The notes beneath the pieces are model-generated. The model was given only the letters and a program-made list of their open reading frames with translations. It ran no database searches and had not been told where the DNA came from. Shown piece by piece: positions 1,900-50,364 of a stretch of 64,000 bases of DNA (position 1 is the stretch's first letter; every line of letters begins with the position of its first letter). Source of the DNA: a virus. The position numbers and the translations under genes were made by a program. The stretch covers positions 13,541 through 77,540 of the IMG/VR virus record IMGVR_UViG_3300029305_004519; one strand, 5' to 3'.

Positions 1900-1972
1900 A
1901 TTTTACTCCTAAAAATTCTAAAACTGCTTTTCATTTTGAATTTACGACCCAGTTCGCTCCGAGCATTAGATA

Positions 1973-3667
1973 TCAGAAATTATACCTACTTTCACCTGTA
2001 ATTGCATATTCTTCAATGAATATCTGCGGACTTACCCAGCCATTGTATTCATTTTTATTTGGCTTCCCAATGATATCCATTTCCACATAACCTTGAGTGT
2101 TTTGAAGTTTCTCACATAAGTCATCTGGAGCATTAAATAGCATTATTGACAAGCGGTTGGGAAGTGTTATCTTGAGAGTATTGTTTTTCTTTACATATAC
2201 CGTTACCATATCTGCCGTTACTTTTAAGCCATCAATAGCAACGAATGATTCTTCCACATCTTTGCCCCAAATGCCATCAAGTTCAGCTATCTCAAGGATT
2301 TGATTAGGATCTACATTTGTGTTGTGATAGATATAGTCTACATAGTGAACTGGTTCAGAGGCCATGTGTTGAAGGGCGCGGTCGGTCGATTCAAGAAAGA
2401 AGGGCACGTCCTCTGGAAGAAGACCTAAACCAAATGCGCCTTGGTGTCCAGCCACGTATTGAATAAGTCCAGTTTCTTCGCAGATATCTTTGAAGTTAGA
2501 TACATCCGCTTTATCACAACCTCGCGCCGAACCTTCATAACAGTCATATTTGCGCGCAACGAGAGTTGGAGTTGCGTCCACTTCGCGCTCGCGGCGGGTT
2601 AAAACTGCGCATGGACGCTGATATTTTCCCATAATCTTGTTTGCCACTAAACCAGCTACATTTGGTTCTACCTCACCTGGTTCCAAGAGGAATAGCAACA
2701 CTTTGTGCGCCATCATATTCTCTTCCTCAATTCTACTTTCAAGACGCGCCATTGCGTCGTCTTGAGCCTTCGTTTGGCGCGTCTTTACATTTTTACAAGT
2801 GCGCACTGCCTGTGTTACCAACTGTTCAGTTTCACCCTGCTTATGCCCACGCTTTGTAGAATATATATAATCAAAAGCCTTAAACTTCAAGAAGGATTTG
2901 AAAAGAAGCTCCTTTTCTTCTTCTTCGCCGCTACGCACCATAGCATTAACAAATGGCGCAATATACCAAGCGGCGCCATGTGGCGTAATCTTATCTCCAA
3001 GAGAGTAAGCATTACTTTCAGCTATTGTTGCGATAAATGGATTATGGATATTCTCTGCGCGGAAGCCTTTCATTATAAGATGCTTTGTTTCTATTGATTG
3101 AAGCGACATCATATCAGCTGTATTACCAAGCGCTACAAGGTCAAGATAATTTTGCGCATAATTAGTATGCATAAGTGAATCGAGATATCTGCAGAACTGC
3201 CATGTAATACCAACACCTGATAGTTGCTTGTTTGGATAAGTGCAAAGCTGGTTGTTAATTACTATTGCATTGGGCGAGACTATATCTGCTTCGTGGTGAT
3301 CTAAGACAATAATATCTACGCCTTTATCAATAAAGGCTAGGTGATATTCATAGTCGTTAGATGATGCATCTGGACACAAGATTAATGCATAATTGGCGGC
3401 CGCCCATTCAACATCAACATCACTAAGCCCATGTTGTTTACCGCTATGAATAAACCAGTCTAAGTTATTTTGAACCCAAGCCGGGAAGTGGTCATAGAGG
3501 TAGTTGATTAAGAGCGCGGACGAGGTAAATCCGTCACAATCTGAGTCTACGATAACTAGCGCCCGGGCGCCTTGAGAAATCGTTTTTATTAAGGTTTGAG
3601 CTGCCTTGCGTAATCGATCGGCGCCCAATAAATTAAAGTCATTAATATCTGCATCTGTTGTATTCAA
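1973..3667 (-). CDS. recJ: RecJ-like ssDNA exonuclease (DHH/DHHA1 phosphoesterase)
   Basis: Motifs IVDSDCDGFTSS (DHH motif I) and VLDHHEADI (DHH). 564 aa. Confidence 0.7.
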   Translation of the reverse strand: MNTTDADINDFNLLGADRLRKAAQTLIKTISQGARALVIVDSDCDGFTSSALLINYLYDHFPAWVQNNLDWFIHSGKQHGLSDVDVEWAAANYALILCPDASSNDYEYHLAFIDKGVDIIVLDHHEADIVSPNAIVINNQLCTYPNKQLSGVGITWQFCRYLDSLMHTNYAQNYLDLVALGNTADMMSLQSIETKHLIMKGFRAENIHNPFIATIAESNAYSLGDKITPHGAAWYIAPFVNAMVRSGEEEEKELLFKSFLKFKAFDYIYSTKRGHKQGETEQLVTQAVRTCKNVKTRQTKAQDDAMARLESRIEEENMMAHKVLLFLLEPGEVEPNVAGLVANKIMGKYQRPCAVLTRREREVDATPTLVARKYDCYEGSARGCDKADVSNFKDICEETGLIQYVAGHQGAFGLGLLPEDVPFFLESTDRALQHMASEPVHYVDYIYHNTNVDPNQILEIAELDGIWGKDVEESFVAIDGLKVTADMVTVYVKKNNTLKITLPNRLSIMLFNAPDDLCEKLQNTQGYVEMDIIGKPNKNEYNGWVSPQIFIEEYAITGESRYNF

Positions 3668-5908: not shown

Positions 5909-7453
5909 TTAAAAGGCTGATAAATCAACGCTCTTCTTTACATTTATTTTAAAGTCCTCAATATCAACTAATTCATAACTATATTTAGTTACGAATATTG
6001 GATCTAATCTACAAATACCACGGTCTGATTTAATCCAGACTAAAACATTCTTCCAACGACCTCGTCTATTCTTATAAATCGACATCTTAATATCTGGCAT
6101 TTCACATCCAAGACGCTTAACCAAAGGTGCCAACGCCTCTTTATCCTTATCCGTCGCCTCAAGCAAAATAGAACCAGCATCAATTTTATCTGCTATAGAC
6201 TTTGCACCACGAAGCAATCCTTGGTCATAAACCTCTGCCTCGTGATAATCATTACTCAGCTGAGTTGCAGACATAATGAATATTCCATACTGATTGCACA
6301 AATCTTTAAGTCTTACGGAAATCATAAAGAGAATATTATCTTCTCTAAGACGCACGCCGCCACTTCTTCGAGTAATTTCTTCGAGAATCTTCATACTTGT
6401 GTGTATATAGTCGTGGAATACATACTTGATATCATTCTCTCTAATGCCTTTCTTGATAACATTTTCAATGTCTTGCAATGAGAAATCTGGAAGTGCTTCA
6501 AAATAGATTTTTCCAGTCTTTAAGAGTTGCGCAGCATGGAGTGCGCGCTCCCATTCACCTTCAAGATATTCACCTGTAACAATATGCTCCTCATTCACAC
6601 CAGACAAAAATGCTATCATCATAGTCTGAACTTCTGATAGCTCTTGCTCTGTTGCTATATAAAGTGTTGCTTGAGGCTCACCCGTGTTTATCCAAGTTCG
6701 CTCTTCAATACTATACATAGAGCCGCATCCAATATAACACGCATCTGCTACCATAGAACGCGTTTTACCAACACCCGTTGCGGCTGAACGGAGATAGAAC
6801 TTTTTCAAGCGTGCGCCGCGGAAAATAGTATTAATATATTTCCCATATAATGGGTAGCCGAGCTCAGGATGCTGTTTTAGTTGCTCAAGAAGCAGCTCCA
6901 CATCGGCGCCCGCTTGAACAATATCAGCTTCACAGTTATCTACATAAACTGACTTAACTTCATCTATCTTTTTATCAATTAAATCTGCGATTTCTACAAG
7001 AGGTGTGTTATCTAACCAGTCCTCTTGCGCCTGTTTCTTCTTTGCATCGAAGATATTGTCCATATCATAGAGCCACGATAAATCCATTCCACAGCGCTCA
7101 TTATACATACGCAAAAGAGTCATCTTTTTGACTCTATCATAGTAATACTGAAATGCACTTATTTGTGTAGCTTCTTTAAGCTGCTCAAGATACTCTGCAC
7201 CCTTATTCGCCTTATATATCGCTTGGCGCTTAGGACGTTGCGCTAGATAGTCTTCTATTGCATTGAGAGTTATCTCCTTTGCGCCGAGTGCATGGAGATT
7301 ATATATAGTTCCAAAAAGAGTCACATGAAAATCTTCACAAAAATCCTCTTCGTGGAAGTGATAATTTTCGTTATCTAAAAGTGAGGGTTGGATATAGATA
7401 GCGCCAATAACTTGCATTATTGCGGCAGTATCTACATATTTGCTTTTGCTCAT
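5909..7453 (-). CDS. dnaB: Replicative DNA helicase (DnaB family)
   Basis: N-terminal DnaB-like domain; Walker A SAATGVGKT; RecA-like core of 514 aa. Confidence 0.8.
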   Translation of the reverse strand: MSKSKYVDTAAIMQVIGAIYIQPSLLDNENYHFHEEDFCEDFHVTLFGTIYNLHALGAKEITLNAIEDYLAQRPKRQAIYKANKGAEYLEQLKEATQISAFQYYYDRVKKMTLLRMYNERCGMDLSWLYDMDNIFDAKKKQAQEDWLDNTPLVEIADLIDKKIDEVKSVYVDNCEADIVQAGADVELLLEQLKQHPELGYPLYGKYINTIFRGARLKKFYLRSAATGVGKTRSMVADACYIGCGSMYSIEERTWINTGEPQATLYIATEQELSEVQTMMIAFLSGVNEEHIVTGEYLEGEWERALHAAQLLKTGKIYFEALPDFSLQDIENVIKKGIRENDIKYVFHDYIHTSMKILEEITRRSGGVRLREDNILFMISVRLKDLCNQYGIFIMSATQLSNDYHEAEVYDQGLLRGAKSIADKIDAGSILLEATDKDKEALAPLVKRLGCEMPDIKMSIYKNRRGRWKNVLVWIKSDRGICRLDPIFVTKYSYELVDIEDFKINVKKSVDLSAF

Positions 7454-7971
7454 TCCTCTTCCTCCAAATCATCTAAGTTAAACAAGCGCGGTGGTTTTAC
7501 GATTCTTATAGGTGGTTCAATAGAGAATTCTCTAACCTTAACTTGAAAATGCTCTACATCTTTGTCTTCATTAGCTACTGCCGCCAGATATAGCGCATAG
7601 TAATAGGCACACGCGTCTTTATACACATAGGGTACAATACCTATTGCGCCATTTGCTTTTTCTACATCGTTTCCTTTTAATTCATACCACCATTTAAGCG
7701 TTTTTAATATTCCGCTATAAGAATATTTATATACTTCTTTATATTCCTTGAGCTGTTTCCATACTCGCGGATTTAAATCCTCTCCTAAGAGGTATTTTAT
7801 ATATTCGATTAATTCATTATAGTCTCGTTCTTCTTGAGACATTGATGCCATATGTGTTTCATAGCATTTTTGATGCGCGTAACGATTACCTTTTGGTTTT
7901 GCGCAAGGCTCAGAGTTACGATCAAAAAGCTGACCACAGTAGAGGCATTTAACCATTGCTTTACTTGCCAT
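7450..7971 (-). CDS. Hypothetical Zn-finger protein (possible helicase-associated factor)
   Basis: CLYCGQ...C...HQKC. Translationally coupled to dnaB. Confidence 0.35.
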   Translation of the reverse strand: MASKAMVKCLYCGQLFDRNSEPCAKPKGNRYAHQKCYETHMASMSQEERDYNELIEYIKYLLGEDLNPRVWKQLKEYKEVYKYSYSGILKTLKWWYELKGNDVEKANGAIGIVPYVYKDACAYYYALYLAAVANEDKDVEHFQVKVREFSIEPPIRIVKPPRLFNLDDLEEEE

Positions 7972-12362: not shown

Positions 12363-13556
12363 TTAGCTATTCCCGCGAGTTTTATTCAGGCCAAAATCAT
12401 ATGTTTGATAGAGGTCGATATAAAACTTCTCCTTTTCATTTAATTCATTGATACTACATTTTTCTAATACTTCAAAAGTAAAGTTATCAATACCTTTTTC
12501 TCTTGTGAATGCATAGAGTTGACTTGTTACAGGGGTGTCGATACCCAAGCTACATTTAACATGCGTTACCCAACGCTCTTTGATATCTTTAGCTTGTCCG
12601 ATGTATGATATGCCAGAGTCAATGTGGGTAATTTTATATATTCCACTTGCGCCCACCGCACCTACGCGCGCCGCAAGGTCATTGACTTTATCTCTATAGA
12701 ATGTAGACCATATAAGCATTCGCAAAGGTCTTGCCTCACGCAAATTATATTCAATGCTTTGAAGATATGCAACATCCCGTTTATCAGCTTCATTAATTTG
12801 AAGGGTATAAAATGTCGCTTGATTTTTAATTTCTTCTTCACGGAGTTGTGCCTCCATTGCGGCGGCCTTAGTTGCACGAATTTTTTCTAGCTCTTCACGA
12901 ATTGAATCTAAATCAGCGCGCATTGCCGCCTCTTCTTCTTGCAGCTCTTTAGACATTGATTGTTGCTTATCATAAAAGAGTTTTACAAGAATATCTAAAT
13001 CTTGACGCTGTTCTTCGATTAAACCATTTTCTCTAGCATCTAATTCTAACATTCTAGTGAAATAAAGCTCATCTAGCTTTGCGATGTCATTATTAAACTC
13101 CTGTTCTCGCTTTTGATATTCATAATCAAGAGTATCACAATATTGCTCAAATGAGGTGCGAGCAGCTGCCTTTAAACTACCTGACATCTCATCTATTGAG
13201 CGATTTAAAGTGGCGATTTGCGCCTCCACTCCTGCTTTTTCAATTTGCTTATTTTGAATTTCATTTATTAACAATAATTTCTATTGAGTTAATTGATTTA
13301 ATTCGTCATAAGAATTTTTTGTTTTTTTACAGTTCTCTTCATACTTTTGAGAAATTTCATTGTTAGATTTTATCAATAAGTCATTTTGAGCTTCTAGGCT
13401 TTTGCGAGTTGCATGTAATGACTAATTAAGCTCTTCCAGTTTCTAATTTTCTTCTGCTACATAGTGATTTGCTTTTATAGTTGTGGCTTTAGCCCATATT
13501 CCGTAAGCAAGGCCGCCTACGCCAAGAAGAATTGATATTACACATATGATTATCAT
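12363..13556 (-). CDS. GIY-YIG endonuclease with N-terminal TM/coiled-coil region and three in-frame TAG codons
   Basis: C-terminal GIYKITHIDSGISYIGQAKDIKERW (GIY-YIG). Reading up from the ORF-track start, the frame stays open through TAGs: MIIICVISILLGVGGLAYGIWAKATTIKANHYVAEEN[TAG]KLEELN[TAG]SLHATRKS...LNQLTQ[TAG]KLLLINEIQNK. Total 398 codons. Confidence 0.5.
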
Positions 13557-13860: not shown

Positions 13861-14185
13861 TGCCTTAAATCTCCTTTTATTTCTTAATATTTAGCAGTAT
13901 TTATCTCTGCTATCGTAGTAATATAATTATATAATAAAATTTATTTATTGTCAAGAAGATTCTTATTATAGATATAGTCCTCAATAGCAAACATCTCAAT
14001 CATTGTGCAACTTTCAATGATGTTAGTCATTTCCTCTTCTGCTGCAGATTTATCAATGCCTGCTTTGATTTGCTTTTCAAGTTCTACAATGCGCTTGATT
14101 TTTGGCACAAGGCGCTTGTGCATTGCTTTGCGTTGCTCCCTATTCATAGGTGCATCTGCTTTTTCCGTTATGTTGTAATTTGCTT

Positions 14186-15019
14186 TCATTTCATTAACTC
14201 CAATAATTCTTCTTCAGTAATAATCGGAATGCCAAGTTCCTTTGCTTTAAGATTCTTTGATGATGTACTATCAATATCATTATTGACGAGATAATCAGTT
14301 TTTGAAGAGACCGATGATGTTACTTTACCACCTGCGGCGGTCACTGCTGCAGAAAGTTCATCTCGGTTTTTCCAGATGTGGACTCGACCTGTAACGCAAA
14401 AGGTTTTACCCTCAAGCGCATTTCCAGAATTTTCCAGCGCGCTTTCATTTGTTTTAAAGGTAATAATCCCCTTTTCTACAAGGCTATCTGCTTCCGTATA
14501 GTCAAAGCTTAAAATCGCATCTGCTTTCTCTGGTCCAATACCATCAAGCGACTCAAAATCAAAGCCATTCGCAACAGCATTTCTAAATTCTTCATAAGTT
14601 TCAAAAGTATTTGCAAGTTTCTGCGCATAGGTCTTACCTATAAGCGGAATGCTAATTGCGCTTAAATACTGTGCAAGAGTAGTCTCGCGTGCTTTCCATA
14701 TAGAGTCAATGAGCTTAGTTACGCTTTTAGGTCCGAAACCAGGCTTACTAGCCCAGAGATCAGCTACTTCACCGAGTGCGCAAATATCGCTTATAGAAGA
14801 TACCCAGCCCCAGTCGATAAGTTTCTCTAAAGTTGCTTTAGACAAGCCTTTAATATCAAGACCTTTCTTTGATACAAAATGTTCTAATTTGTTAATCAAT
14901 TTTCCACTGCAATCAGGATTATTACAAAATAATTCTTGTGTGCCGCTATCGCTCGTTTTGATAATTGTATTTCCGCCGCAAATAGGACAAGTCTTTGGTA
15001 TTTCAATCCATTCAATCAT
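14186..15019 (-). CDS. ligA: NAD-dependent DNA ligase, C-terminal half (Zn finger, HhH, BRCT)
   Basis: CPICGG...CNNPDC zinc finger, HhH region, then BRCT-like GKTFCVTGRV...ELGIPIITEEELLELMK. Own RBS and ATG. Confidence 0.8.
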   Translation of the reverse strand: MIEWIEIPKTCPICGGNTIIKTSDSGTQELFCNNPDCSGKLINKLEHFVSKKGLDIKGLSKATLEKLIDWGWVSSISDICALGEVADLWASKPGFGPKSVTKLIDSIWKARETTLAQYLSAISIPLIGKTYAQKLANTFETYEEFRNAVANGFDFESLDGIGPEKADAILSFDYTEADSLVEKGIITFKTNESALENSGNALEGKTFCVTGRVHIWKNRDELSAAVTAAGGKVTSSVSSKTDYLVNNDIDSTSSKNLKAKELGIPIITEEELLELMK

Positions 15020-15983
15020 ATTTTCTTTCCTTTTTTACAATAAATTTACTTTTATTAATATCTAAATCTTCTAAGGTTAATTGTTCAAGATGAGTATAAG
15101 GAATTCTAATTAATATAATATTATTATCCATACACCATTTATTCTTAAAAAGATCTCGAGCATTAGTTTTTTGAAATTGCTCTTCTGCGACTTTTTTAGA
15201 TATGCCTCCAAATTGTCGAGGAGTAAAATGCTGTTCCCCATCATATTCAATTAAATATTTATTTTCAACAAAAAAATCATAATATAAATGATAATTCGTA
15301 TCTGGGTAAACACAAGTATCAAAAGTTTTCTATTTTTCAAAAGTAATATTATTTTCTTTTAAAAGTTTTTCAATACAGTATTCTCCTTTTGATTTTCCTA
15401 AGCACCCACAAGAAGAAGTGTGACCTCGTCTAAGATTTAACGTTGAAACTTGGATTTTATTATGATCAGGACATGAGCATTCACATAGCCACATAATTCT
15501 ACCATTTGGATCACGTTCTTCCATTTTTTCTATAACTGTTAATTTACCAAAATGGGATCCAACAAGATTTAATGCTCTTTGTTCTCCCAATTTCTTCATG
15601 CGCTCTTTGGTAATACAACCACAAGATTTAGTACCTCCATTTTCTCCTTTTTTCAGCTAATCAGTTGGTACTTTAGTAATATTTCCACAATCACACTAAC
15701 ATTCCCATATCATACATCTTTTAGGGGTTTTTTCTCCAGTTGGACGTAAAGCCACTAATCGTCCGAATCTTTGCCCTGTTAAATCTTCAAATTTAGGTTC
15801 ATGTTTTTTACATCCACAAGAAGTTACTCGCTTTGCATTTAATTCTCCAGAAGTTACTTCTTTTTGATTTCCACACTAACATTGACAAAGCCAAACAACA
15901 GCTCCCCCTTTTCGTTTGTCTGTTTTTTCAATTACTGTTAAATAACCAAACTACTCTCCAATTAAATTTTTACAAGCTGGCAT
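15012..15983 (-). CDS. Homing endonuclease (Zn-ribbon repeats plus Vsr-like/DUF559 nuclease domain) with five in-frame TAG codons, inserted inside ligA
   Basis: RBS AAGGAGAAAAG and ATG at 15983. Frame open for 324 codons through TAGs at GE*FGY, QC*CGN, EC*CDC, TD*LKK and FEK*KTF. C-terminus has YDFFVENKYLIEYDGEQHF...ARDLFKNKW...ILIRIPY (DUF559/Vsr-like). Ends with TGA overlapping the ligA-C ATG. Confidence 0.5.
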
Positions 15984-17103
15984 CGTTTATCTTTTCTCCT
16001 TCTGCTACCTGCGGAATAATTTGATTAGCGAGGTAGACTTTAATTTTTTGTCCTTTATAAGGTCTACCTAATATTAAATTTAAAGTAGATAAATTATGCA
16101 AATTTGCCCTTGAAATTATATTTGAACCCGTATCTACATCTTTGTAAACTGCAACTGGAGTCAAGACACCAGTTCTACCCATAGACCATTCAATGTCTAA
16201 GAGTTCAGTCTCATATTCCTCGTCATAGAATTTATAAGCAAGACCGCCGCGAAAATGATGTTCTGTTCTACCTGCTGCTTGGTATTCTTTAATATTATCC
16301 CACTTAAAGACAATACCATCAATAGGATAGTCATTTAAAGAAGATAACCCTTTTATAGATGCTTCAATATATTTTTCAGTCTCACCTCCGCAAAATGGAA
16401 CACTAATAAAGCTTAAACTTTGCAAATGAGTAAGTTTGGCGCTTAAAGTAGTCATATCAATATAATTAAATCCTTGAATAATATCCCAAGCTACAAAAGT
16501 CAATTCTCTTTTAGCGCACTCATTACTATCCAAAAGTCGAATACTACCAGCTGCAAAGTTACGCGCATTAGCATGCTTGCCTTTGAATTGCTCAAAAGTA
16601 TCGAGATCGCAGATAACTTCTCCATCTACTACAAGTGTATCTTTATAAGGAATAATTTGTGGAATAGAGGGGAGCACTCGCGCATTATGGGTAATATCTT
16701 CGCCCTCAACGCCGTCTCCTCTTGTCTCGGCGCGAATTAGTCTACCTTCTTCATAAGTCAAACGACAAGTTAAACCGTCAAGCTTAAGCATTGCAATCCA
16801 TTCTTTATCACCGATAAAAGATTTAATTTCTTCAATATCTTTTGTCTTATCAAGTGAAAGCATAGGTTGATATTCATGCTTTACTTTTTTAAGCTCAGAT
16901 ACTACTTCATATCTAATCTTCTTAGTAGGTGAATTTTCAAATTCGATACTTGGAAACTCTTGTTCAAGAGCTTTAAGTTCCAAATAAGCTTCATCCCATT
17001 CTTTATCTGTTATCTTTGGAGTCCCAGCATCATATTGGTCTTGATGATAATTAAGATATTCAATTAATCTTCGCATTTTTTGCGCTACATCAAATTTCTC
17101 CAT
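15970..17103 (-). CDS. ligA: NAD-dependent DNA ligase, N-terminal half (adenylation plus OB domains)
   Basis: KxDG motif MLKLDGLTCRL and ...IIPQVAEG (OB end). Stops just before the Zn-finger region, which is encoded by 14186-15019. Confidence 0.8.
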   Translation of the reverse strand: MEKFDVAQKMRRLIEYLNYHQDQYDAGTPKITDKEWDEAYLELKALEQEFPSIEFENSPTKKIRYEVVSELKKVKHEYQPMLSLDKTKDIEEIKSFIGDKEWIAMLKLDGLTCRLTYEEGRLIRAETRGDGVEGEDITHNARVLPSIPQIIPYKDTLVVDGEVICDLDTFEQFKGKHANARNFAAGSIRLLDSNECAKRELTFVAWDIIQGFNYIDMTTLSAKLTHLQSLSFISVPFCGGETEKYIEASIKGLSSLNDYPIDGIVFKWDNIKEYQAAGRTEHHFRGGLAYKFYDEEYETELLDIEWSMGRTGVLTPVAVYKDVDTGSNIISRANLHNLSTLNLILGRPYKGQKIKVYLANQIIPQVAEGEKINDASL

Positions 17104-17123
17104 ATTTATTCTCCTTTTTATTC

Positions 17124-17165
17124 TTATAATATATTATAACATATTTTTAATAAAAAATCAAAAGA
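17124..17165 (-). promoter_or_regulatory. Conserved phage promoter (middle/late class) upstream of ligA-N
   Basis: Plus-strand ttataatatattataacatatttttaataaaaaatcaa; minus strand reads TTGATTTTTTATTAAAAATATGTTATAATATATTATAA. Confidence 0.65.
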
Positions 17166-17176
17166 AGAGAGGATAA

Positions 17177-17605
17177 TTAATCCTCTCTTTTAACCCGGCC
17201 TAGCTTATCCGCGGAAGCCTCAGTATAAAATGAATAATAACTAATATTATGCTTAATGCGGTAGCGTTCAAAACAGCCCGCCCAGATTAAAGAAGGTAAC
17301 GCAATCACTAACAGGTAAAGGGGACCAAGTTTGTGAGATTGAATAGTATGTCCGTACTCATGTGCCATATAATCTCGATGCCATTTAGATGCCATTACTT
17401 CTTCTATTGGCTTATCGAAATGCTTTCTTGGTAAAAAGATATGGTTGCTTAAAGACATTCCACCACCATGTCCCCAGAAATAAAAATGTACGCTCTCACC
17501 ATTCATGTCTGTCATATCAAGTGGCTCTGCTTTAAATACCCATTTTACGATATGGGCAAGCGCCTTTTGAGGCGCTTCCCATATTCTGCTTAACCATTTA
17601 TTCAT
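17177..17605 (-). CDS. Putative membrane zinc metallopeptidase (HExxH)
   Basis: HEYGH motif; hydrophobic C-terminal segment. Confidence 0.35.
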   Translation of the reverse strand: MNKWLSRIWEAPQKALAHIVKWVFKAEPLDMTDMNGESVHFYFWGHGGGMSLSNHIFLPRKHFDKPIEEVMASKWHRDYMAHEYGHTIQSHKLGPLYLLVIALPSLIWAGCFERYRIKHNISYYSFYTEASADKLGRVKRED

Positions 17606-22467: not shown

Positions 22468-22543
22468 GCTTTAAGTATGGCTGGGAGTGTGGGATTCGAA
22501 CCCACGCATAACCGGGTTAGAGCCGGAGGCCTTAGCCGCTTGG
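22468..22543 (-). tRNA. Amber suppressor tRNA, anticodon CUA, tRNA-Gln-like body (tRNA-Sup(CUA), predicted Gln)
   Basis: Hand-folded canonical 76-nt cloverleaf: AGGGAGT/ACTCCCA acceptor (A1·A72 mismatch, G2-C71, G3-C70), G73, encoded CCA, D-arm GCCA/AGGC, anticodon loop C-U-C-U-A-A-C (U33, C34 U35 A36), T-arm GTGGG-TTCGAAT-CCCAC. Shares TCGCCAAGCGG...CCCAGCCA features with the tRNA-Gln(UUG) at 42331-42408. Confidence 0.8.
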
Positions 22544-22602
22544 CGAACTCCCTATTGATTACATATAAATTATAATCAAAATTTTTGAAAAAATCAATTA
22601 TT

Positions 22603-40121: not shown

Positions 40122-40197
40122 TGGAGGCGACACTCCGATTCGAACGGAGACCTCGTAGCTTTGCAGGCTCGCACCTTTGCCGTTTGGCTATGTCGCC
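40122..40197 (-). tRNA. tRNA-Cys(GCA)-like
   Basis: Acceptor GGCGACA/TGTCGCC, U73, CCA encoded, T-arm CTCCG-TTCGAAT-CGGAG, anticodon loop CUGCAAA. The anticodon stem is weak (3 bp). Confidence 0.5.
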
Positions 40198-40283
40198 ATA
40201 TCCAATTACCTCGCGCCACCGAACGGCGCGAGGTAAAAGCAGAAAGGAAGGTAGGAAAAATGTTGCCCAAAATTAAAAGGGGC

Positions 40284-40358
40284 TGGAGCAAGTAGCGAGA
40301 ATCGAACTCGCACCAAATGCTTGGAAGGCACTTATACTAGCCGTTATACGATACCTGC
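40284..40358 (-). tRNA. tRNA-Gly(UCC)
   Basis: Acceptor GCAGGTA/TACTTGC, U73, anticodon stem AGTGC/GCATT, loop CUUCCAA. Confidence 0.65.
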
Positions 40359-40443
40359 ATGGAGCTGAAGGTCCGATTCGAACGGACGCGGACTCTCGTC
40401 TCTCGCTTACAAGGCGAGTGCAATCGGCCACTATGCGACTTCA
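40359..40443 (-). tRNA. Class II tRNA (long variable arm). The canonical fold gives anticodon UGU, which is atypical.
   Basis: Acceptor GCTGAAG/CTTCAGC, U73, D-arm GCA/TGC with an 11-nt loop, anticodon stem CTCGC/GCGAG with loop CUUGUAA, a 14-nt variable arm, T-arm GTCCG-TTCGAAT-CGGAC. Directly abuts tRNA-Gly. Confidence 0.45.
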
Positions 40444-41228
40444 GCATATTAAGTTTTCAATAATCGCATAAGAAAATATATAATCACTTTAACGAGCCTT
40501 CACTCTACATCGTTTCTGAAGTGCGTTATTAACATATGTTCACGGGAGGCTGAGCAATGGGTAGCGATCCCACGCTTCTCCAATGGTTCTCTCTATCTTG
40601 CCCCGATAGGAAAGCAAGTAAATTAAACTACCACACCCTCGATCAATACTAAGGGAACTTTCACCGAGCTTCAGCATTAATTCTAAAATACCTGTTTTCA
40701 TCAAATTTGAAGCTATCTTTTATGCCCGATACGGCTACTCGCACCAGCCAAATCTGTTATAGTTTGTTACCAAACATCAACGGGAACGCTTATTTTTGAG
40801 ATACCTAGTTGATTATTCGCTTCATAACGGTTTCTCACGCCGCCAACTTTAGGTGGTATGCATCACTGCAGGGACTCTTCTCGCGCCAGATTCCTGACTG
40901 TTGTTTACGCTAAATCATCAATATGCACCATTATCCGCAACCTTTGTCAGGCATACTCGTTTATTCAGTATATTCACGAGTTTTATTTACTTTAGAGCAG
41001 TATCCCACTCTGTTTCTTTCCCCGCGGATCTGTCCTAGCCATCATGCAAGATGTCTGCACTAGGATGTTAAAGGTTTATATATTTTCTTATGCAATTATC
41101 AATGAACTTTTTTCTTTTGATTACTTAATCATTATATCATAAATTTTTTAAGTTTTCAAGAGAGAGGTGAGGCTTTAGGTCAGCCGACCGCACATCTGTT
41201 GATTGCTGGAACTTTTGCTCTTCCAAAA

Positions 41229-41305
41229 TGGTGCTTCAAATAGGATTCGAACCTATACTACCGAAGGTTTGAGCTTCGCGCCTCTGCCAATTGGGCTATT
41301 AAAGC
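41229..41305 (-). tRNA. tRNA-Leu(CAA)-like with a short (5-nt) variable arm
   Basis: Acceptor GCTTTAA/TTGAAGC, A73, Leu-type D-arm GCC-CAATTGGCAGA-GGC, anticodon stem CGAAG/CTTCG with loop CUCAAAC, variable GTAGT. Confidence 0.5.
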
Positions 41306-41861
41306 ATACTAAATAAATACTACTACCTATTTTCATTATACTTTCTGGCTTAGAACTCTTTGCTCTACCAGAACCACTCCTCTTCCCTTCGCGACCAGCT
41401 TTAAGTATGCATGAAATAAAGGCTGGCAGGTACTAGGCATTATCAATGCCGTTCGCTTGCTTTTTACACGGATTAACGCCTCAAACTAATCATAGGCTTT
41501 CGTATTTATTTGTACCGAATATGCTTGTGTTTGGAAAAGAGAAGCTCTCTTTTCTCGCTTGGATCGTTACTCACTACAGATATTGTGTAACACTTAGCAT
41601 ACCGTATCGTTAATCTTTCCAAGTTCATTCAATATATGGCTAGCGCTGTATCGCTTTTTGATTTATCGCATCGTGGGCCTCGCCGCGTCATCTTTTAACA
41701 GCGATGAATCTGTCGAATTTGATACGCGGATTTCGCCCGCGCCATTGACTTTATTGAAGGGTATTCGCGGTAATGGATCGCGTTTCTTGCTTTAACGCAT
41801 CAAGACTGCGGAGGTTATCTTTTCAACCGCCCTATCCCAGTTGAGTAATGAGATCAAGATA

Positions 41862-41944
41862 ACAGATCTATTGGTGTTGATTCTGGGACTCGAACCCAGA
41901 CCCTTTCGGACTAGTTCCTAAGACTAGCGCGGCTGCCAGTTACG
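41862..41944 (-). tRNA. tRNA-Leu(UAG)
   Basis: Acceptor GTTGGTT/AATCAAC, A73, anticodon stem CTAGT/ACTAG with loop CUUAGGA, long variable arm, T-arm CTGGG-TTCGAGT-CCCAG. Confidence 0.65.
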
Positions 41945-42038
41945 CCAAACCAACATTCCAGAGGCTATTGTTTTAGCGGTAATAGCCTAAACCCGCACAA
42001 AGAAGGGAGGAAAAATTGTGAAAATCAAAACGGTTCAT

Positions 42039-42114
42039 GGTGGAGAATATCGGCTATGATCCGATCACCTTCCGCTTGCAGGGCGGATGCTCTTCCAAAT
42101 GAGCTAATTCCCCA
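42039..42114 (-). tRNA. tRNA-Ala(UGC)
   Basis: Acceptor GGGGAAT/ATTCTCC with a G3·U70 pair, A73, anticodon stem TCCGC/GCGGA with loop CCUGCAA. The T-loop is atypical. Confidence 0.55.
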
Positions 42115-42248
42115 TTTTGCACTTTACTTTGCCTCTTTATATCCCGTTTGTCACAAGCCACATACTATGAAGTGGTAGTTTAAGTGCGAAATCCATGCTA
42201 ACGGATAAGAGTGCGGCTATATAGTCTAACTTAATAGACACCGACTCA

Positions 42249-42325
42249 TGGCTGGGGAGGTGGGGCACGATCCCACGACCTACGGTTTAACAGACCGTCG
42301 CTACTACCAACTGAGCTACACCCCA
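42249..42325 (-). tRNA. tRNA-Asn(GUU)
   Basis: Anticodon stem ACGGT/ACCGT with loop CUGUUAA, G73, D-arm GCTC-AGTTGGTAG-TAGC. One acceptor mismatch and an atypical T-loop. Confidence 0.55.
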
Positions 42326-42330
42326 ATCAA

Positions 42331-42408
42331 TGGCTGGGCAGGTTGGACTCGAACCAACGAAATGCAGGAGTCAAAGTCCTGTGCCGTAACCAACTTGGCT
42401 ACTGCCCA
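42331..42408 (-). tRNA. tRNA-Gln(UUG)
   Basis: Acceptor TGGGCAG/CTGCCCA (U1-A72), G73, anticodon stem CAGGA/TCCTG with loop CUUUGAC, T-arm GTTGG-TTCGAGT-CCAAC. Confidence 0.7.
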
Positions 42409-42498
42409 ATATATGATTAGCGACCTCTTTCGAGCAATTTTGAATCGAGAATTTGTTGATGGAAGCGGTCAAATAAGCCGCTTATATTGCATCGCCTT

Positions 42499-42545
42499 TA
42501 TCTTACATATATATTATATCATAAATTTTTTATTTTTTCAACGAA
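42499..42545 (-). promoter_or_regulatory. Conserved phage promoter (middle/late class) driving the tRNA sub-cluster
   Basis: Plus-strand atatatattatatcataaattttttattttttcaa. Confidence 0.55.
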
Positions 42546-42571
42546 TTATCCTTACGCTACCTTTTTATTTA

Positions 42572-42658
42572 TGGTGAGCGTGGCGGGAATCGAACCCGCG
42601 ATGGACATAATGTCGAGGGATTAAAAGTCCCTTGTACTCGCCGCTGTACTACACGCTC
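42572..42658 (-). tRNA. Class II tRNA (long variable arm). The canonical fold gives anticodon UUU, which is atypical.
   Basis: Acceptor GAGCGTG/CACGCTC, A73, D-arm GTAC-AGCGGCGA-GTAC, anticodon stem AGGGA/TCCCT with loop CUUUUAA, a 16-nt variable arm, T-arm GCGGG-TTCGATT-CCCGC. Confidence 0.45.
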
Positions 42659-42828
42659 ATATCAAGCGATTCGCGGCAGATAAAATTATTTTTGCATTGC
42701 TCTTAACTGCCGCTCCAACTTACGGATAATTCTTCCGTTGTCGCGTTTTCGGCTCTTAAGCAGATCAATGCGCGCTTGAAGCGCTTCTACAGTTCTCATT
42801 ATTTTTATTTCCTTTCTTTTGATTACAT

Positions 42829-42868
42829 ATATATTTTATCATAAATTTTTAATAAAATCAATGATAAA
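42829..42868 (-). promoter_or_regulatory. Conserved phage promoter (middle/late class)
   Basis: Plus-strand atatattttatcataaatttttaataaaatcaa. Confidence 0.55.
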
Positions 42869-43002
42869 TCTTAAAGCTGCCTTTCATCTAATGGTGGTTA
42901 GATGATAAGGACTGCTCGCACAGCGTTTATTATTGGCTACGCTTAAACCCATACTTAGGCTTGCGCCGCAGACAGTTTTGATTTAGCTACTGACAAACTT
43001 AT

Positions 43003-43078
43003 GGTGCGGCTTGTAGGACTCGAACCTACGGTCTTCTGGATGTAAGCCAGATGCTTTAACCAACTAAGCTAAACCCGC
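43003..43078 (-). tRNA. tRNA-Val(UAC)
   Basis: Anticodon stem TCTGG/CCAGA with loop CUUACAU, A73, T-arm GTAGG-TTCGAGT-CCTAC. One acceptor mismatch. Confidence 0.6.
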
Positions 43079-43193
43079 AAGAAAGAGAGGGGAGAATTTT
43101 TATACCCAGCAAGAGATAACTCTCCAAACTCAGAGTTTTACGAGGCGCCCGTCGATACTCGCTGGCAGCATCAAGGCGCAGATTAAATCATAT

Positions 43194-43270
43194 TGGTCTG
43201 AATGAAGGGACTCGAACCCCCAGCCTCTAGATCCCAAATCTAGAGCTCTGCCAAATTGAGCTACATCCAG
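43194..43270 (-). tRNA. tRNA-Pro(UGG)
   Basis: Acceptor CTGGATG/CATTCAG (C1-G72), A73, anticodon stem CTAGA/TCTAG with loop UUUGGGA. Confidence 0.65.
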
Positions 43271-43980
43271 ATGTGGTTCCATAAGGTCGGAAACCTCGCC
43301 GCACATTTTTCACCTACTAGCAGGGTCGCCATTTGCTCAATGCGATTATAAGAGCTTTTAAGCGCTTTCACGCGGAGGCTCTTACTTTATATTCCAGCTT
43401 TTGGATGCGGGAAGCTGGACCCGCGCCATTCATAGGGTTCGCGGATAAACCATCACCTACTACTAAGCCACATCATAACTTGCCCACTTCATCTTGGAGG
43501 AGCGACTCCAGCGGATATTTGGCCCACCGCTGCCTGTGTCTTGAGACTCAACACTATTACCTGTGTTTTTATATAGCGTTTTCAGCTTCGCTTTCTACTC
43601 GCTCTGTTGATAGGGGGAGGATCGAAGGGACTCCTCCCAGAGGTCATTATAGAAAAGAACCGTAGCGGAAATCTATTGGCGGTTCAATTTGTCTGCTTTA
43701 TCCGCAATTGAGAGGGAAACGGACTAAATGCTCTCGCAGGGGTTAAGGTACCCTGTTTTTGTAAGACATTACTCGAGTTATTCTTACCACAACTTCCGAC
43801 TTTACCTAATAGGCTGGTTTTCGCATTATCCATTTACCACAGTTTTCCTCCATTCATACTTGACTTCCGGCTTCGTGGCACCTATTATCTTTCCCGTTGC
43901 TCACGGATACGGGACCCCGGACGCTCTGCGTATTACCGCACAGGTTAGTCTCCTGACCAATGATTAGGCATTGGCACCTC

Positions 43981-44146
43981 TGGTGGAATGGGTAGGAGTT
44001 GAACCTACTTTGTCGCGACACACCGTGGCTTTACCGATTGCTTACCACCCCATAAATTGTGAGCGTTTATGCTTGGTAGCTCACTCCACTTCTGACCACT
44101 GGTCTTACACTCCCAGAGCGTGAAGATTTCAATACGGTTCTTCAAC
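43981..44146 (-). ncRNA. tRNA-like 3' domain (T-arm, G3·U70 acceptor, ACCA) without D and anticodon arms. Could be a tmRNA-like or other structured RNA.
   Basis: Minus strand ends ...GTAGG-TTCAACT-CCTAC-CCATTCC-A-CCA. Candidate 5' partner strands GGGGTGG (about 40 nt upstream) or GGAATGG (about 160 nt upstream). The interior has a perfect palindrome, GTGTCGCGACAC, not an anticodon arm. Confidence 0.3.
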
Positions 44147-44287
44147 CATTCCGCAGTATGCCGTTGGCTAACGATGACATACGATTCGTATCAGACTGTA
44201 GTACTCCAGCTTTTCACCTACGGCGTCTGATAATCGCCTTTTGTTAGTTTAGGGTTAATGCCGCGACGAACTAACAAAACTCGGCAT

Positions 44288-44363
44288 TGGCGACTCTGAG
44301 GCATTCCGACAGCCCGACCTTCGCAGTGACAGTGCGATGCTCTACCCCCTGAGCTACAGAGCC
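44288..44363 (-). tRNA. tRNA-Asp(GUC)
   Basis: Acceptor GGCTCTG/CAGAGTC, G73, D-arm GCTC-AGGGGGTA-GAGC, anticodon stem TCGCA/TGCGA with loop CUGUCAC. T-arm is irregular. Confidence 0.5.
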
Positions 44364-44524
44364 AAATATTAAAATAAAAGACTGGCTCAGTATGGATATT
44401 TCACCATAAGAAAAGTTTCCTGATTTAAGACTGACTAACTTGATGCCTGTTGATACGCGTTTATCTGAACAGGTCTTATTCGTTAAAATCCAGTCACCAA
44501 ATGTTGCTTTTTTTCTTTCTTTAT

Positions 44525-44570
44525 CTTTTGTATATATATTATAACAAAATTTTTATTAAAAATCAATTAA
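44525..44570 (-). promoter_or_regulatory. Conserved phage promoter (middle/late class)
   Basis: Plus-strand atatatattataacaaaatttttattaaaaatcaa. Confidence 0.55.
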
Positions 44571-44600
44571 GAATGCTTTATCCAGCTTCAATGAAAGATC

Positions 44601-44790
44601 TTATCTAGATTTTTCAACGGGCCAATCAAGAATCTTTCGACCATCTTGGCGCTTCATATAGCTAATTTTATTACACGCTTTGCAACGAAGACGCTTTCTA
44701 GTTCCAAAATGTGGAGTCCAAAACCACTTCCAAAAGTCTGTGATTTCATTTGTCTCTTTACAATGCTTACAAGTATATCTTACTTTCATA
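44601..44790 (-). CDS. Small zinc-ribbon protein inside the tRNA island
   Basis: MKVRYTCKHCKETNE...RLRCKACNK. RBS AGGAGG. The longer ORF-track version reads through the His tRNA. Confidence 0.45.
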
Positions 44791-44809
44791 ATAAACCTCC
44801 TAAAGTTTA

Positions 44810-44886
44810 TGGGGAGAAAGGTGGGGCTCGAACCCACAACATCTGGACTCACATTCCAGTGCTCTGCCAATTGCGCTACTAACTCC
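44810..44886 (-). tRNA. tRNA-His(GUG)
   Basis: Anticodon stem CTGGA/TCCAG with loop AUGUGAG, C73 with an extra 5' G(-1), T-arm GTGGG-TTCGAGC-CCCAC. The acceptor has two U·U mismatches. Confidence 0.5.
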
Positions 44887-44970
44887 AAGTATACACCCCC
44901 AACCTTGTGTCCCATTACAGTTGGCAAGAGGATTTTCCGTGATAGTGCATGATCTCAAAGGGACGCGCTC

Positions 44971-45047
44971 TGGTGGGAAGAATTGGAGTCGAACCAACAC
45001 ACTCTGGTTTTTCAGACCAGCGCTTAGACCGCTTAAGCTATCTTCCC
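44971..45047 (-). tRNA. tRNA-Phe(GAA)
   Basis: Acceptor GGGAAGA/TCTTCCC, A73, anticodon stem CTGGT/ACCAG with loop CUGAAAA. Confidence 0.7.
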
Positions 45048-45303
45048 ATATTCGAAGTGGGGAACTGGATTTTGATCGAGAGATATCCCCTTCGCATCTT
45101 GTACTGTTTGTGGTTGATTGACACATAGTACATTCCTGTAAACTCTATCCGACTTACACGGAGCCTTCTTTATCGCGTTTCGAACCACTTAGAAAGGCAT
45201 ATTTCTCAACACGCGTGGAATCTTCTGCATCCCCTTACCATGGGTGTACCTCCTCTTATTTTAAGACGGGTAGGGAGGCCGCGTCATACAAGAGCCTTTC
45301 GGC

Positions 45304-45379
45304 TGGAGCGATATACGAGACTTGAACTCGTTGCCTTCTGCATGGCAAGCAGACGCTCTACCAAATGAGCTAATACCGC
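45304..45379 (-). tRNA. tRNA-Gly(GCC)
   Basis: Acceptor GCGGTAT/ATATCGC, U73, D-arm GCTC-ATTTGGTA-GAGC, anticodon stem TCTGC/GCAGA with loop UUGCCAU. Confidence 0.7.
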
Positions 45380-45755
45380 ATTAAGGGAGAAGGTCCCGAT
45401 CTCCCACGGGGAATGAATTTCACATTATCACTCACAACGCCAATAGTCAATAACTGGCTTTCTATTGACAAAGCCCTCATTTGCGCCGTGCACTGCGCTT
45501 CGTCTTTAGCACTGGACACAAGCCTACAGTTCCTAAAGGTTATCAAATATACACACGGTAATGAGTTACCGTTTGCTACTTTTTTAGAGCATTTTCGCGC
45601 TCATGGCTTATCGATGGTAGCTAACCAATATCACGGCAAGGTCATGACTCCTTGCGACAAATTTCAAAGCTCGCGATGAGTGTTTTAGCCTCATATCAAA
45701 CTACGCTCTTAGGCGGAGGGCATCGAACCCCCTTCTCTCTTAACTTTGAAATTTT

Positions 45756-45830
45756 GGTGTGGACTCTAGGGATCGAACCTAGGACAACGCGATTATCAGT
45801 CGCGTCCTCTTCCAACTGAGGTAAGCCCAC
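45756..45830 (-). tRNA. tRNA-Ile(GAU)
   Basis: Anticodon stem CGCGA/TCGCG with loop CUGAUAA, A73, T-arm CTAGG-TTCGATC-CCTAG. Confidence 0.65.
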
Positions 45831-45961
45831 ATATTAAAAATGGAAACTTCAAGTGGGTCGGCGTATCCTCTATCCAACTTTTCCGCGCTGTCGACTCGGC
45901 GCTTCACCGTGCTACTTTTTATCCGCGTCCAGACCTGCTCCTTACAGGTGTTTCCTATGTA

Positions 45962-46056
45962 TGGCGGAGGAGGTAGGATTCGAACCCACGGGTCAGATCA
46001 AAGCTGACACAACAGATTTCAAGTCTGTGCGCTTATGTCCTCTTGCGCACTCCTCC
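45962..46056 (-). tRNA. tRNA-Ser(UGA)
   Basis: Acceptor GGAGGAG/CTCCTCC, G73, anticodon stem ACAGA/TCTGT with loop CUUGAAA, long variable arm. 95 nt. Confidence 0.7.
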
Positions 46057-46455
46057 ATAATGCACAGATTCTCGTACTGTGCGCAGTCCCATATGGCGCC
46101 TTGAAAAGACTGCACGAGGAATGTTTATACAGGCACATTCACTCAAACCTAACCTAGACTTCTCAATAAGGTCACACTGTGTGCTTTCTCTACTACGGCG
46201 GTTCGCACGCTTTAATGTCTCGCACAAAAGACAGCTGGCAGAGAGCGCAGGTCCCGACCCTGAGCGGATAACCGCCACATCCCTTAGCAGGGGAGTGCCG
46301 CGCCTTGCGACTTCACTCTCTATAATGTGTGTTCCACTTGCGTTTTCTCTTCTTCATCGGTTTACACACAACCTACCACTTGAAGCGCCACTAATTTATA
46401 TACCGAGTCTGGCTTTCGTCGGTGAATTACACTAATTGTGTTACTTTGCGCTGGT

Positions 46456-46613
46456 GCTACCCCCGGGACTCGAACCCGGACGCCTCTAACGAGACACTGG
46501 ATTTTTGGTGCCTGAAATGAGATTTGAACTCATAATCTGAAGCTAGGTCGCCCCAGAGTTTTCCGTTTGAGCTTATTCAAGCAAGTCCAGGGCGTCTGCC
46601 ATTCCGCCACGGT
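46456..46613 (-). ncRNA. Composite tRNA-like element: a class II tRNA interrupted in its anticodon loop by an ~85-nt insert that itself ends in a tRNA-like T-arm, acceptor and CCA
   Basis: 5' half GCTACCG..CTGGA-CUUGC..., then ...GAGTTCAAATCTCATTTCAGGCACCA, then AAAATCCAG plus variable arm GTCTC-GTTA-GAGGC, then CCGGG-TTCGAGT-CCCGG-GGGTAGC-A-CCA. Confidence 0.35.
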
Positions 46614-46626
46614 AGCATAATGCGTC

Positions 46627-46986
46627 TTACCAAGGACGCACAAAACTATACAGTTTCAATATTGGGCAACCAAGTTGCTCATAAAACTCCTCTCCAAAGA
46701 ATTGGTTAAAAGCGTAAGGAATTTCATATTCTTGATTTTTAAGCCAGCCTTTAACTTCAGTAGGATCAAGTTCGATTTCATCATCAAGTCTTACTCCAAA
46801 ATACACAAAATCTGGATCAGAATATCCATTATCAGTAATGAAATATAAATCTGGAAACTGTTCATCAAGAATATCACCCAATTCCCAAAATTCTCTTCCT
46901 GTTGCCCGAAACATAGCCGCATAATTTTCATTTGTTAAAGGAATTTGAAATCCATAAATTAAAACTGAACTATAATCAACACTCAT
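46627..46986 (-). CDS. Hypothetical protein
   Basis: 119-aa ORF, RBS present, conserved promoter upstream at about 47005-47050. Confidence 0.4.
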   Translation of the reverse strand: MSVDYSSVLIYGFQIPLTNENYAAMFRATGREFWELGDILDEQFPDLYFITDNGYSDPDFVYFGVRLDDEIELDPTEVKGWLKNQEYEIPYAFNQFFGEEFYEQLGCPILKLYSFVRPW

Positions 46987-47080
46987 TTTTATTTCCTCTT
47001 TCCTTTTGATTACATATATATTTTATCATATTTTTTAATAAAAATCAATAAAGTATATGCAATTTAAAGTTATTGATAAA

Positions 47081-47167
47081 TGGTGGGAAGGGTGGGAATT
47101 GAACCCACTGAGACCGAAGCCAACGGTGTTACAGACCGCCCCAACTCTCCTACTTTGGCGCCCGCCC
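47081..47167 (-). tRNA. tRNA-Tyr(GUA)
   Basis: Acceptor GGGCGGG/CCTTCCC (one mismatch, one GU), A73, anticodon stem GCGGT/ACCGT with loop CUGUAAC, long variable arm, T-arm GTGGG-TTCAATT-CCCAC. Confidence 0.55.
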
Positions 47168-47253
47168 ATATTAAAATGACTTTAAGTCAGTCAACTGCAC
47201 ATCCATTTAGCCTCCCACATTTGCTCTCGGAGGGTAAATAATATGGATAATAC

Positions 47254-47342
47254 TGGAGCGAAAGGCGAGATTCGAACTCGCGATAGTGGAGTATTAAAAC
47301 CCGTCCCTATAACGGGCGCCTTTACCTCTAGGCTACTTTCGC
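47254..47342 (-). tRNA. Class II tRNA with an ambiguous anticodon loop (UAUAGGG; possibly UAG)
   Basis: Acceptor GCGAAAG/CTTTCGC, U73, T-arm GCGAG-TTCGAAT-CTCGC, anticodon stem CCCGT/ACGGG, long variable region. Confidence 0.4.
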
Positions 47343-47345
47343 ATA

Positions 47346-47417
47346 TGGTGCCAGAATCTGGAGTCAAACCAAACACTCAAGGTGTATGAAACCTCAATGC
47401 GCATCGGCGCTTCTGGC
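47346..47417 (-). tRNA. tRNA-Met(CAU) (elongator type or Ile2-type)
   Basis: Acceptor GCCAGAA/TTCTGGC (G1-C72), A73, anticodon stem GAGGT/ACCTT with loop UUCAUAC. Short D-arm. Confidence 0.5.
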
Positions 47418-48818: not shown

Positions 48819-48879
48819 TTTTCTTTCTCCTCTCTTTATCTTACAAATATATTATATCATATTTTTTTATAAAAATCAA

Positions 48880-49854: not shown

Positions 49855-49862
49855 TATATTTA

Positions 49863-50337: not shown

Positions 50338-50364
50338 TTCTGCTTTTCTCCTTTTGAATAATGT

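Follow-up and report, generated by a model that had tools for sequence, protein, structure and literature searches.

How a phage comes to encode its NAD-dependent DNA ligase in two genes with a third between them, and whether the two can still act as a ligase, is the question raised by a locus in the 64,000-nucleotide stretch of viral DNA analysed here, which we call the window. The locus consists of three consecutive ORFs with sites upstream of the first:

15970..17103, minus strand: ligA-N, 377 aa, with its own ATG and a TAA stop; domain Ia, adenylation domain (KLDG motif) and OB fold.
15012..15983, minus strand: putative free-standing homing endonuclease gene, 323 aa; three Cys-rich repeats of ~60 aa and a C-terminal Vsr-like (EDxHD-type) nuclease domain.
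14186..15019, minus strand: ligA-C, 277 aa, with its own ATG within the 3' end of the endonuclease ORF; Zn finger, HhH and BRCT.
17165-17189, minus strand: terminator-like hairpin upstream of ligA-N; consensus match only.
17133-17161, minus strand: promoter-like TTGATT-17-TGnTATAAT, 3' of the hairpin and upstream of ligA-N; consensus match only.

The original prediction of a split ligase is borne out by this layout, in which ligA-N and ligA-C tile E. coli LigA with nothing missing. ligA-N matches the Pfam families DNA_ligase_aden (PF01653, E 8e-42) and DNA_ligase_OB (PF03120, E 7e-14) and has the KxDG lysine motif in the form KLDG, while ligA-C matches HHH_5 (E 6.5e-13), HHH_2 and BRCT (E 6.6e-13) and has a four-Cys Zn finger reading CPICGG...CNNPDC. 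Residues 6-367 of ligA-N align with residues 4-388 of E. coli LigA (2owo) and residues 6-276 of ligA-C with residues 403-669; the halves therefore abut in the linker between the OB fold and the Zn finger, and no domain is missing. The LigA domains are nevertheless not on one polypeptide: a TAA closes the N half 10 residues past its last LigA-homologous position, and the C half has a separate ATG 950 nt downstream, 5 residues before the next homologous position. An AAAGGAG lies 8 nt upstream of the ligA-N ATG, and the start region of ligA-C is unusually unstructured by RNA folding (z +2.0). No terminator-like site was found between the three ORFs on the same strand, and no promoter-like site above chance within the endonuclease ORF.

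The endonuclease ORF extends from the ATG at 15983 to a TGA at 15012-15014 (323 sense codons plus the stop). As predicted, its start overlaps the last codons of ligA-N, by 14 nt (15970-15983); its TGA had also been described as overlapping the ligA-C ATG, but the two codons have no bases in common, the TGA lying 2 nt downstream of the ATG at 15017-15019 (ATGATTGA), and it is the two ORFs that overlap, by 8 nt. The product appears to be a live homing endonuclease. Its nuclease domain has a fold similar to that of Vsr and I-Bth0305I, in agreement with an earlier call of a Vsr-like/DUF559 domain, and is placed by structure comparison only, because sequence searches against the PDB gave no match with either the single query or a profile of 61 sequences; nor was a Pfam family found. 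Among 61 homologues, D236, D248, H252 and D277 are invariant and E201 is nearly so (at least 90%), and these five residues match the catalytic E170/D196/N208/H213/D222 of I-Bth0305I in parallel order and spacing (PMC3239194). The N-terminal part has no Pfam match to NUMOD and consists of the three Cys-rich, beta-rich repeats instead of NUMOD/HTH modules. RNA folding gives no hairpin that would sequester the endonuclease start, as reported for other free-standing endonucleases (z -0.35), and the 64-kb window holds no second copy of the gene.

Relatives free of the endonuclease confirm that the halves derive from one gene: LigA is contiguous in two syntenic relatives (L001 and L002; 642-662 aa) and in protein fragments such as P0123. 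L003-L006, L013 and L014 have this endonuclease at the same site, with ORF overlaps as in the window, and in other relatives unrelated HNH or I-HmuI-like endonucleases interrupt the ligase within the OB/Zn-finger linker. The split recurs in this clade, by way of several endonuclease families. Between phages, the endonuclease together with short flanking stretches is 90-100% identical, the distal parts of the ligase 45-70%, and the GyrA-like gene, taken as reference, 90% or 70%. Such high identity of the endonuclease and its flanks amid a diverged ligase looks like the signature of homing and co-conversion, the extent of which can be given as follows:

14860..16340, minus strand: approximate mobile block (endonuclease and co-converted ligase flanks), 93-100% identical to L013.
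about 15044-16120, minus strand: minimal block common to L014, from sliding-window and per-codon identity.

Against INPHARED phages, the DNA of the region gave short weak matches only, and the phage therefore has no close cultured relative.

Altogether, we think it likely that a homing endonuclease gene landed in the LigA linker and split the ligase into two separately translated genes giving two polypeptides, with neither RNA nor protein splicing. The insertion would have supplied the stop codon of the upstream half (tail ...INDASL, then the stop) and the RBS and ATG of the downstream half (leader MIEW...), so that one transcript would yield both ligase polypeptides. The adenylation/OB subunit and the Zn-HhH-BRCT subunit would then associate non-covalently, probably on nicked DNA, and seal nicks, as is presumed for the two ligase subunits (A and B) of T5-like phages. 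The tails that the insertion created have only about 4-6 residues and therefore provide no obvious assembly domain. The endonuclease, in turn, would cut endonuclease-free ligA alleles in co-infecting relatives, and recombinational repair would copy it in, carrying flanking ligase sequence along. From the asymmetry of the co-converted flanks, the cut is predicted to fall within the last ~150-350 nt of ligA-N. Activity of the paired polypeptides as a ligase is our inference; ORF integrity, the dN/dS of the halves and the prevalence of split forms support assembly from two pieces.

An alternative is that the insertion inactivated the ligase, leaving halves that are non-functional or decaying, or of which only one matters, with host LigA or another phage ligase sealing nicks. 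Bacterial LigA fragments without Zn-HhH seal nicks poorly, which speaks for this alternative, as does the possibility that the endonuclease arrived recently in each lineage. However, both halves are full-length ORFs that retain KLDG, the four Zn-finger Cys, HhH and BRCT, and their dN/dS is 0.10-0.34 in nine of ten pairs, wherever estimable, although this is weaker proof of selection after the split because much of the divergence may predate the arrival of the endonuclease. Moreover, 87 of the 120 closest ligA-C homologues are intact ORFs of the C half only, with 60 different leaders, implying long persistence, and in T5-like lytic phages this two-gene form has been kept in hundreds of genomes. 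Inactivation of the ligase is, on this evidence, unlikely.

Less probable again is an intron of group I (or II) that encodes the endonuclease, with the halves as exons spliced into one ligase mRNA. Phage group I introns can carry Vsr-like endonucleases, for instance I-Bth0305I in recA (PMC3239194), and divergent phage introns may escape the Rfam (group I) models. Against this, the Rfam group I and II models give no family match at E<=10 in 14000-17300, no match reaching the gathering score anywhere in the window, and none at E<=1 in six related loci. The endonuclease ORF takes up 100% of the gap and extends into both halves, so that no non-coding core is left; each half's own stop or start is conserved with the element; and the ORF-only inserts of relatives are even smaller (477-513 nt, with overlaps of 1-11 nt).

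The endonuclease ORF itself raises a further issue, as its reading frame is interrupted by exactly five in-frame stops, the number predicted, all of them TAG (codons 11, 36, 96, 109 and 218), and the window encodes a tRNA that could read them:

15951-15953, 15876-15878, 15696-15698, 15657-15659 and 15330-15332, minus strand: TAG (Gln) codons of the endonuclease.
22478..22553, minus strand: amber suppressor tRNA, anticodon CTA (ARAGORN and Rfam).

Under the standard code the ORF breaks into pieces, and the JGI gene calls do fragment it, as would be expected of a dead pseudogene full of nonsense mutations. This reading is nonetheless very improbable: the 323 codons contain no TAA, TGA or frameshift, homology and repeat register run on unbroken across the TAGs, and the dN/dS of the endonuclease is 0.10-0.15. 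Furthermore, some orthologues have CAA or CAG where others have TAG, and one orthologue without any TAG reads CAA at four of the five positions. The tRNA(CTA), aligned with the window's tRNA-Gln, has Gln-like acceptor features (A1/A72 mismatch, G2-C71, G3-C70 and G73), and in-frame TAGs also occur in other genes of the window. The features of a phage with TAG recoded to Gln (code 15 type) are thus present, namely a tRNA(CTA) and in-frame TAGs aligned with Gln of homologues. TAG appears, from these alignments, to encode Gln, and the endonuclease would therefore need the suppressor tRNA, in line with the original prediction. By contrast, the ligase halves, the GyrA-like gene and the neighbouring large replication genes contain no in-frame TAG, with the exception of a GIY-YIG ORF (12363-13556) that has three. 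If the phage tRNA(CTA) reads the five TAGs as Gln, completion of the endonuclease would have to await active suppression, whereas the ligase halves, having no TAG, would be translated regardless.

That the halves are a 'fractured gene' joined by protein trans-splicing of split-intein pieces, as in the loci of Dassa et al. 2009, where Vsr-like free-standing endonucleases accompany split genes, a DNA ligase among them (PMC2677866), is hardly credible here, since the termini are flush with intact LigA and carry no extra N-intein (~100 aa) or C-intein (~35 aa) sequence.

The endonuclease-split ligase is real and recurs in related phages, yet it adds to a phenomenon already known and does not overturn current understanding: annotations of T5-like phages place a ligase break at this very point, and gating of an endonuclease by recoded stops had been proposed earlier. 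The interest of the locus is that a two-subunit NAD-dependent ligase is caught here as it arises, with the endonuclease still in place and apparently still moving, whereas T5-like phages show the end state only. More broadly, we lean, if only slightly, towards the view that the OB/Zn-finger linker is a recurrent landing pad for at least three unrelated endonuclease families (Vsr-like, NUMOD-HNH and small HNH/EndoVII-like), that repeated landing has thereby made the two-subunit ligase the majority form in a clade of large, tRNA-rich, TAG-recoded phages, that this form arose independently in T5-like phages, and that the Vsr-like elements are time-gated by their amber codons. If so, LigA would be a natural model for enzymes that tolerate fragmentation at domain boundaries. 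The matched intact and split alleles, with several endonucleases at one linker, make a comparative set for studying two-piece LigA and for finding new endonuclease specificities. Loci of this kind are prone to misannotation, since gene callers that assume the standard code break the endonuclease ORF into fragments.

Among known systems, an NAD-dependent DNA ligase is annotated as subunits A and B in T5-like phages (Demerecviridae; PMC4319617). It is broken at the same point as the ligase of the window, and its two genes lie side by side and point the same way: the end of subunit A is a few residues past the IIPxV motif of the OB fold (...IPCIVERVYD, then the stop), and subunit B begins about 8 residues ahead of the first Cys of the Zn finger (MKIEIPTQCPSCGS). 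The T5-like halves are, however, just 24-33% identical to those of the window, and the window's nearest relatives have intact LigA, which argues that the split arose independently of the T5-like one. Where the window has an intact mobile endonuclease, Tequintavirus has an empty 204-nt gap between the ligase genes and Vibrio phage Javier has two unannotated ORFs.

In 2007, Friedrich et al. are said to have described the splitting of nrdA of Aeromonas phage Aeh1 by the free-standing HNH endonuclease mobE. The analogy to endonuclease-split phage genes drawn in the original prediction is apt, an ORF here lying between halves that are contiguous in relatives, with no intron or intein. In both cases a free-standing endonuclease inside an essential nucleotide-metabolism gene gives two polypeptides, and the new tails originate from the insertion. 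The assembly of the Aeh1 pieces has been shown biochemically (Crona et al. 2011, PMC3045599). The tails in the window, unlike those of Aeh1, are short, and the Aeh1 insertion is of an HNH endonuclease within a domain of nrdA, that in the window of a Vsr-like one in an inter-domain linker of the ligase. Known EDxHD/Vsr-like endonucleases (I-Bth0305I, Hef and the 'fractured gene' endonucleases) use NUMOD/HTH motifs where the window's endonuclease has its three N-terminal Cys-rich repeats, and its sequence has no detectable similarity to 3r3p. Finally, in 'Agate' phages an endonuclease enriched in recoded stops lies within an early gene, and this has been proposed to delay the endonuclease until late (Borges et al., bioRxiv 10.1101/2021.08.26.457843). 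As with the ligase of the window, the gene that harbours the endonuclease itself lacks recoded stops; the Agate endonuclease, however, is intron-encoded and uses TGA for Trp, while the one described here uses TAG for Gln, is free-standing and splits its host gene.

Altogether, our results support a NAD-dependent DNA ligase gene encoded in two halves around an endonuclease ORF. Both ligase ORFs were found on the minus strand where the original prediction had placed them, and the region comprises the following features, together with a distant tRNA:

15970-17103, minus strand: ligA-N, 377-aa ORF with NAD-ligase adenylation and OB domains (Pfam).
15983 (ATG) to 15012-15014 (TGA), minus strand: endonuclease ORF, one frame, open except for five in-frame stops.
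14186-15019, minus strand: ligA-C, 277-aa ORF with HhH and BRCT domains (Pfam).
22478-22553, minus strand: tRNA with anticodon CTA (ARAGORN/Rfam).

The two halves match a single 656-position PHROGs NAD-ligase profile at positions 4-379 (ligA-N) and 389-654 (ligA-C), and they cover residues 4-388 and 403-669, respectively, of E. coli LigA (2owo). They therefore tile LigA and join in the linker that connects the OB fold to the Zn finger. The endonuclease ORF shares 14 nt with ligA-N and 8 nt with ligA-C; its TGA, thought earlier to overlap the ligA-C ATG, sits 2 nt downstream of it, although the ORFs themselves do overlap.

All five in-frame stops are TAG (codons 11, 36, 96, 109 and 218). TAG encodes Gln here, and the endonuclease ORF is a live gene. 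Homology to phage endonuclease families runs on through the TAGs, the register of three internal repeats is unbroken across them, and codons 34, 218 and 251 alternate between TAG and CAA/CAG among orthologues from other metagenomes. In L005/L006, an 80% identical orthologue free of TAG, four of the window's five TAG positions read CAA. With TAG counted as Gln, dN/dS is 0.10-0.15 against three orthologues; the ORF has five TAG and ten CAA/CAG codons. In alignment, the acceptor stem of tRNA(CTA) resembles that of the window's tRNA-Gln (A1/A72 mismatch, G2-C71, G3-C70, G73), features that by E. coli GlnRS rules would confer Gln identity. In-frame TAG is absent from the window's other large replication genes (ligase halves, GyrA-like gene, neighbours) and recurs in a neighbouring GIY-YIG-domain ORF (three) and in plus-strand ORFs near 56-58 kb (up to ten).

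In the GIY-YIG-domain gene (12363-13556, minus strand), reading TAG as Gln joins three standard-code ORFs into a single 397-aa protein with 3 in-frame TAGs; it has a TM helix at the N-terminus, a long coiled coil, and the GIY-YIG domain at the C-terminus. The gene is conserved in relatives, with 3-8 TAGs in all four checked (L009, L010, L013, L014), and the adjoining genes have none. The plus-strand ORFs lie within 56208-58413 (10 TAGs in 265 codons at 57616-58413; 3 TAGs at 56208-56672), and a flip in GC skew sign over 56-60 kb marks this divergent gene block. A full-length ROOL RNA (40474-41088, minus strand; Rfam RF03087, 175 bits; gathering score 99) lies within an array of ~25 tRNA genes (40122-51365). 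A tRNA at 44291-44363 (minus strand) was found by Rfam, at 44.9 bits, and not by ARAGORN, while tRNA-Tyr (47081-47167) and tRNA-Arg (51288-51365) were found by ARAGORN and are absent from the Rfam list.

The endonuclease has more than 7000 homologues and matches no Pfam family. An AlphaFold model of P0001, a homologue 91% identical to it, built with 61 homologues supplied (mean pLDDT 90), has an alpha/beta domain preceded by three Cys-containing repeats rich in beta structure. D236, D248, H252 and D277 are invariant among the 61 aligned homologues and E201 is nearly so; as a set they parallel the E-D-x-H-D arrangement described in I-Bth0305I (PMC3239194), whereas the N-terminal part differs from the NUMOD/HTH modules of that family. 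On the basis of the model, these residues and the N-terminal difference, we predict it to be a Vsr-like homing endonuclease of the EDxHD type whose DNA-binding region is different.

Uninterrupted LigA (642-662 aa) occurs on two IMG/VR contigs that share the window's gene order (GyrA-like, LigA, small ORF, GIY-YIG-domain ORF), and the linker is contiguous in several closer fragments, including P0123 (86%), P0135 and P0142. Among the 120 best ligA-C homologues, 87 consist of the C half alone (about 267-287 aa); these start 6-14 residues ahead of the first Zn-finger Cys and carry 60 distinct leader peptides. Another 27 have the OB fold upstream. L003-L006, L013 and L014 share the window's endonuclease together with the DASL* tail and the MIEWI leader. 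Genomic context shows that the same linker holds different endonucleases in other relatives:

L009: NUMOD4-HNH_3-NUMOD1 protein, 170 aa.
L010: HNH/EndoVII-like protein, 158 aa.
L011: 247-aa member of the window endonuclease's family, without TAGs.
L012: I-HmuI-like NUMOD protein; the contig begins within this ORF and does not include ligA-N.

Between the window and L013, the endonuclease is 96-100% identical, the distal ligase 45-70% and the GyrA-like gene 90%; for L014 the values are mostly 90-97%, 45-70% and 70%. The high-similarity tract reaches about 150-370 nt into ligA-N and 0-150 nt into ligA-C, and the middle part of the window's ligA-C is closest to that of L009, which has a different endonuclease. 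Such a mosaic is what homing with co-conversion would be expected to produce. Because the upstream tract is the longer, the predicted cut site may lie in the last part of the sequence coding for the OB fold, by the conserved KANQIIPQV motif. Within the shared tract in L014 ligA-N (1917-3050), the conserved IIPQV motif itself has TAG as its Gln codon. L013, a close relative, also has a second Vsr-like endonuclease (6810-7541; Cys-rich repeat, IEFQGKQH motif, 7 in-frame TAGs) elsewhere in its replication module, at a place where the window has none.

Within the sensitivity of the Rfam models, an intron between the halves is very unlikely. As in the original prediction, which recognised no group I core, the group I and II intron models had no hit along 14000-17300 even at E<=10, a gathering-score search of the whole window was likewise negative, and six related loci yielded nothing at E<=1; moreover, the endonuclease ORF spans the entire gap and overlaps both neighbours, leaving a ribozyme core no space. 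A "fractured gene" with split inteins (Dassa et al., PMC2677866) is excluded because the new ligase termini have only about 4-6 residues more than intact relatives.

A terminator-like hairpin and a promoter-like site (TTGATT-17-TGnTATAAT) precede ligA-N and no terminator-like site lies between the three ORFs on the same strand, and the three are therefore likely to share one transcript. AAAGGAG lies 8 nt 5' of the ligA-N ATG; AAGGA lies 8 nt 5' of the ligA-C ATG, in a start region folding worse than 199 of 200 shuffles, consistent with independent initiation of ligA-C. In our model, the two polypeptides would associate non-covalently and function as one ligase of two subunits, as suggested by ORF integrity, motif retention, dN/dS (0.10-0.34 for the halves, estimable in nine of ten pairs), how common split forms are, and the precedent in T5. 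Full endonuclease would be made only while tRNA(CTA) suppression is active, which might delay it until late infection.

T5-like phages have annotated NAD-ligase subunits A and B (PMC4319617), broken at the same point as here (A ends ...IPCIVERVYD and B starts MKIEIPTQCPSCGS), but their gap is empty, as in Tequintavirus (204 nt), or contains unannotated ORFs, whereas the window's holds the endonuclease. In the T5-like Vibrio phage Javier (L008, 2380-3338), the hypothetical ORFs gp53 and gp52 between the subunits have no significant Pfam match and could be remnants of an old insertion. Because identity is 24-33% and the window's nearest relatives have intact LigA, its split is an event independent of the T5-like one. 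The ligase split is real and well supported, and it is a phenomenon of an already known kind because, besides the T5-like precedent, a free-standing endonuclease fragments an essential gene with function kept in Aeh1 nrdA/mobE (PMC3045599) and, in the TGA-recoded Agate phages, an endonuclease located within an early gene was noted to be enriched in recoded stops (Borges et al., bioRxiv 10.1101/2021.08.26.457843). To these precedents, the window and its relatives add an endonuclease caught in place and a single LigA linker as the recurrent target of several endonuclease families.
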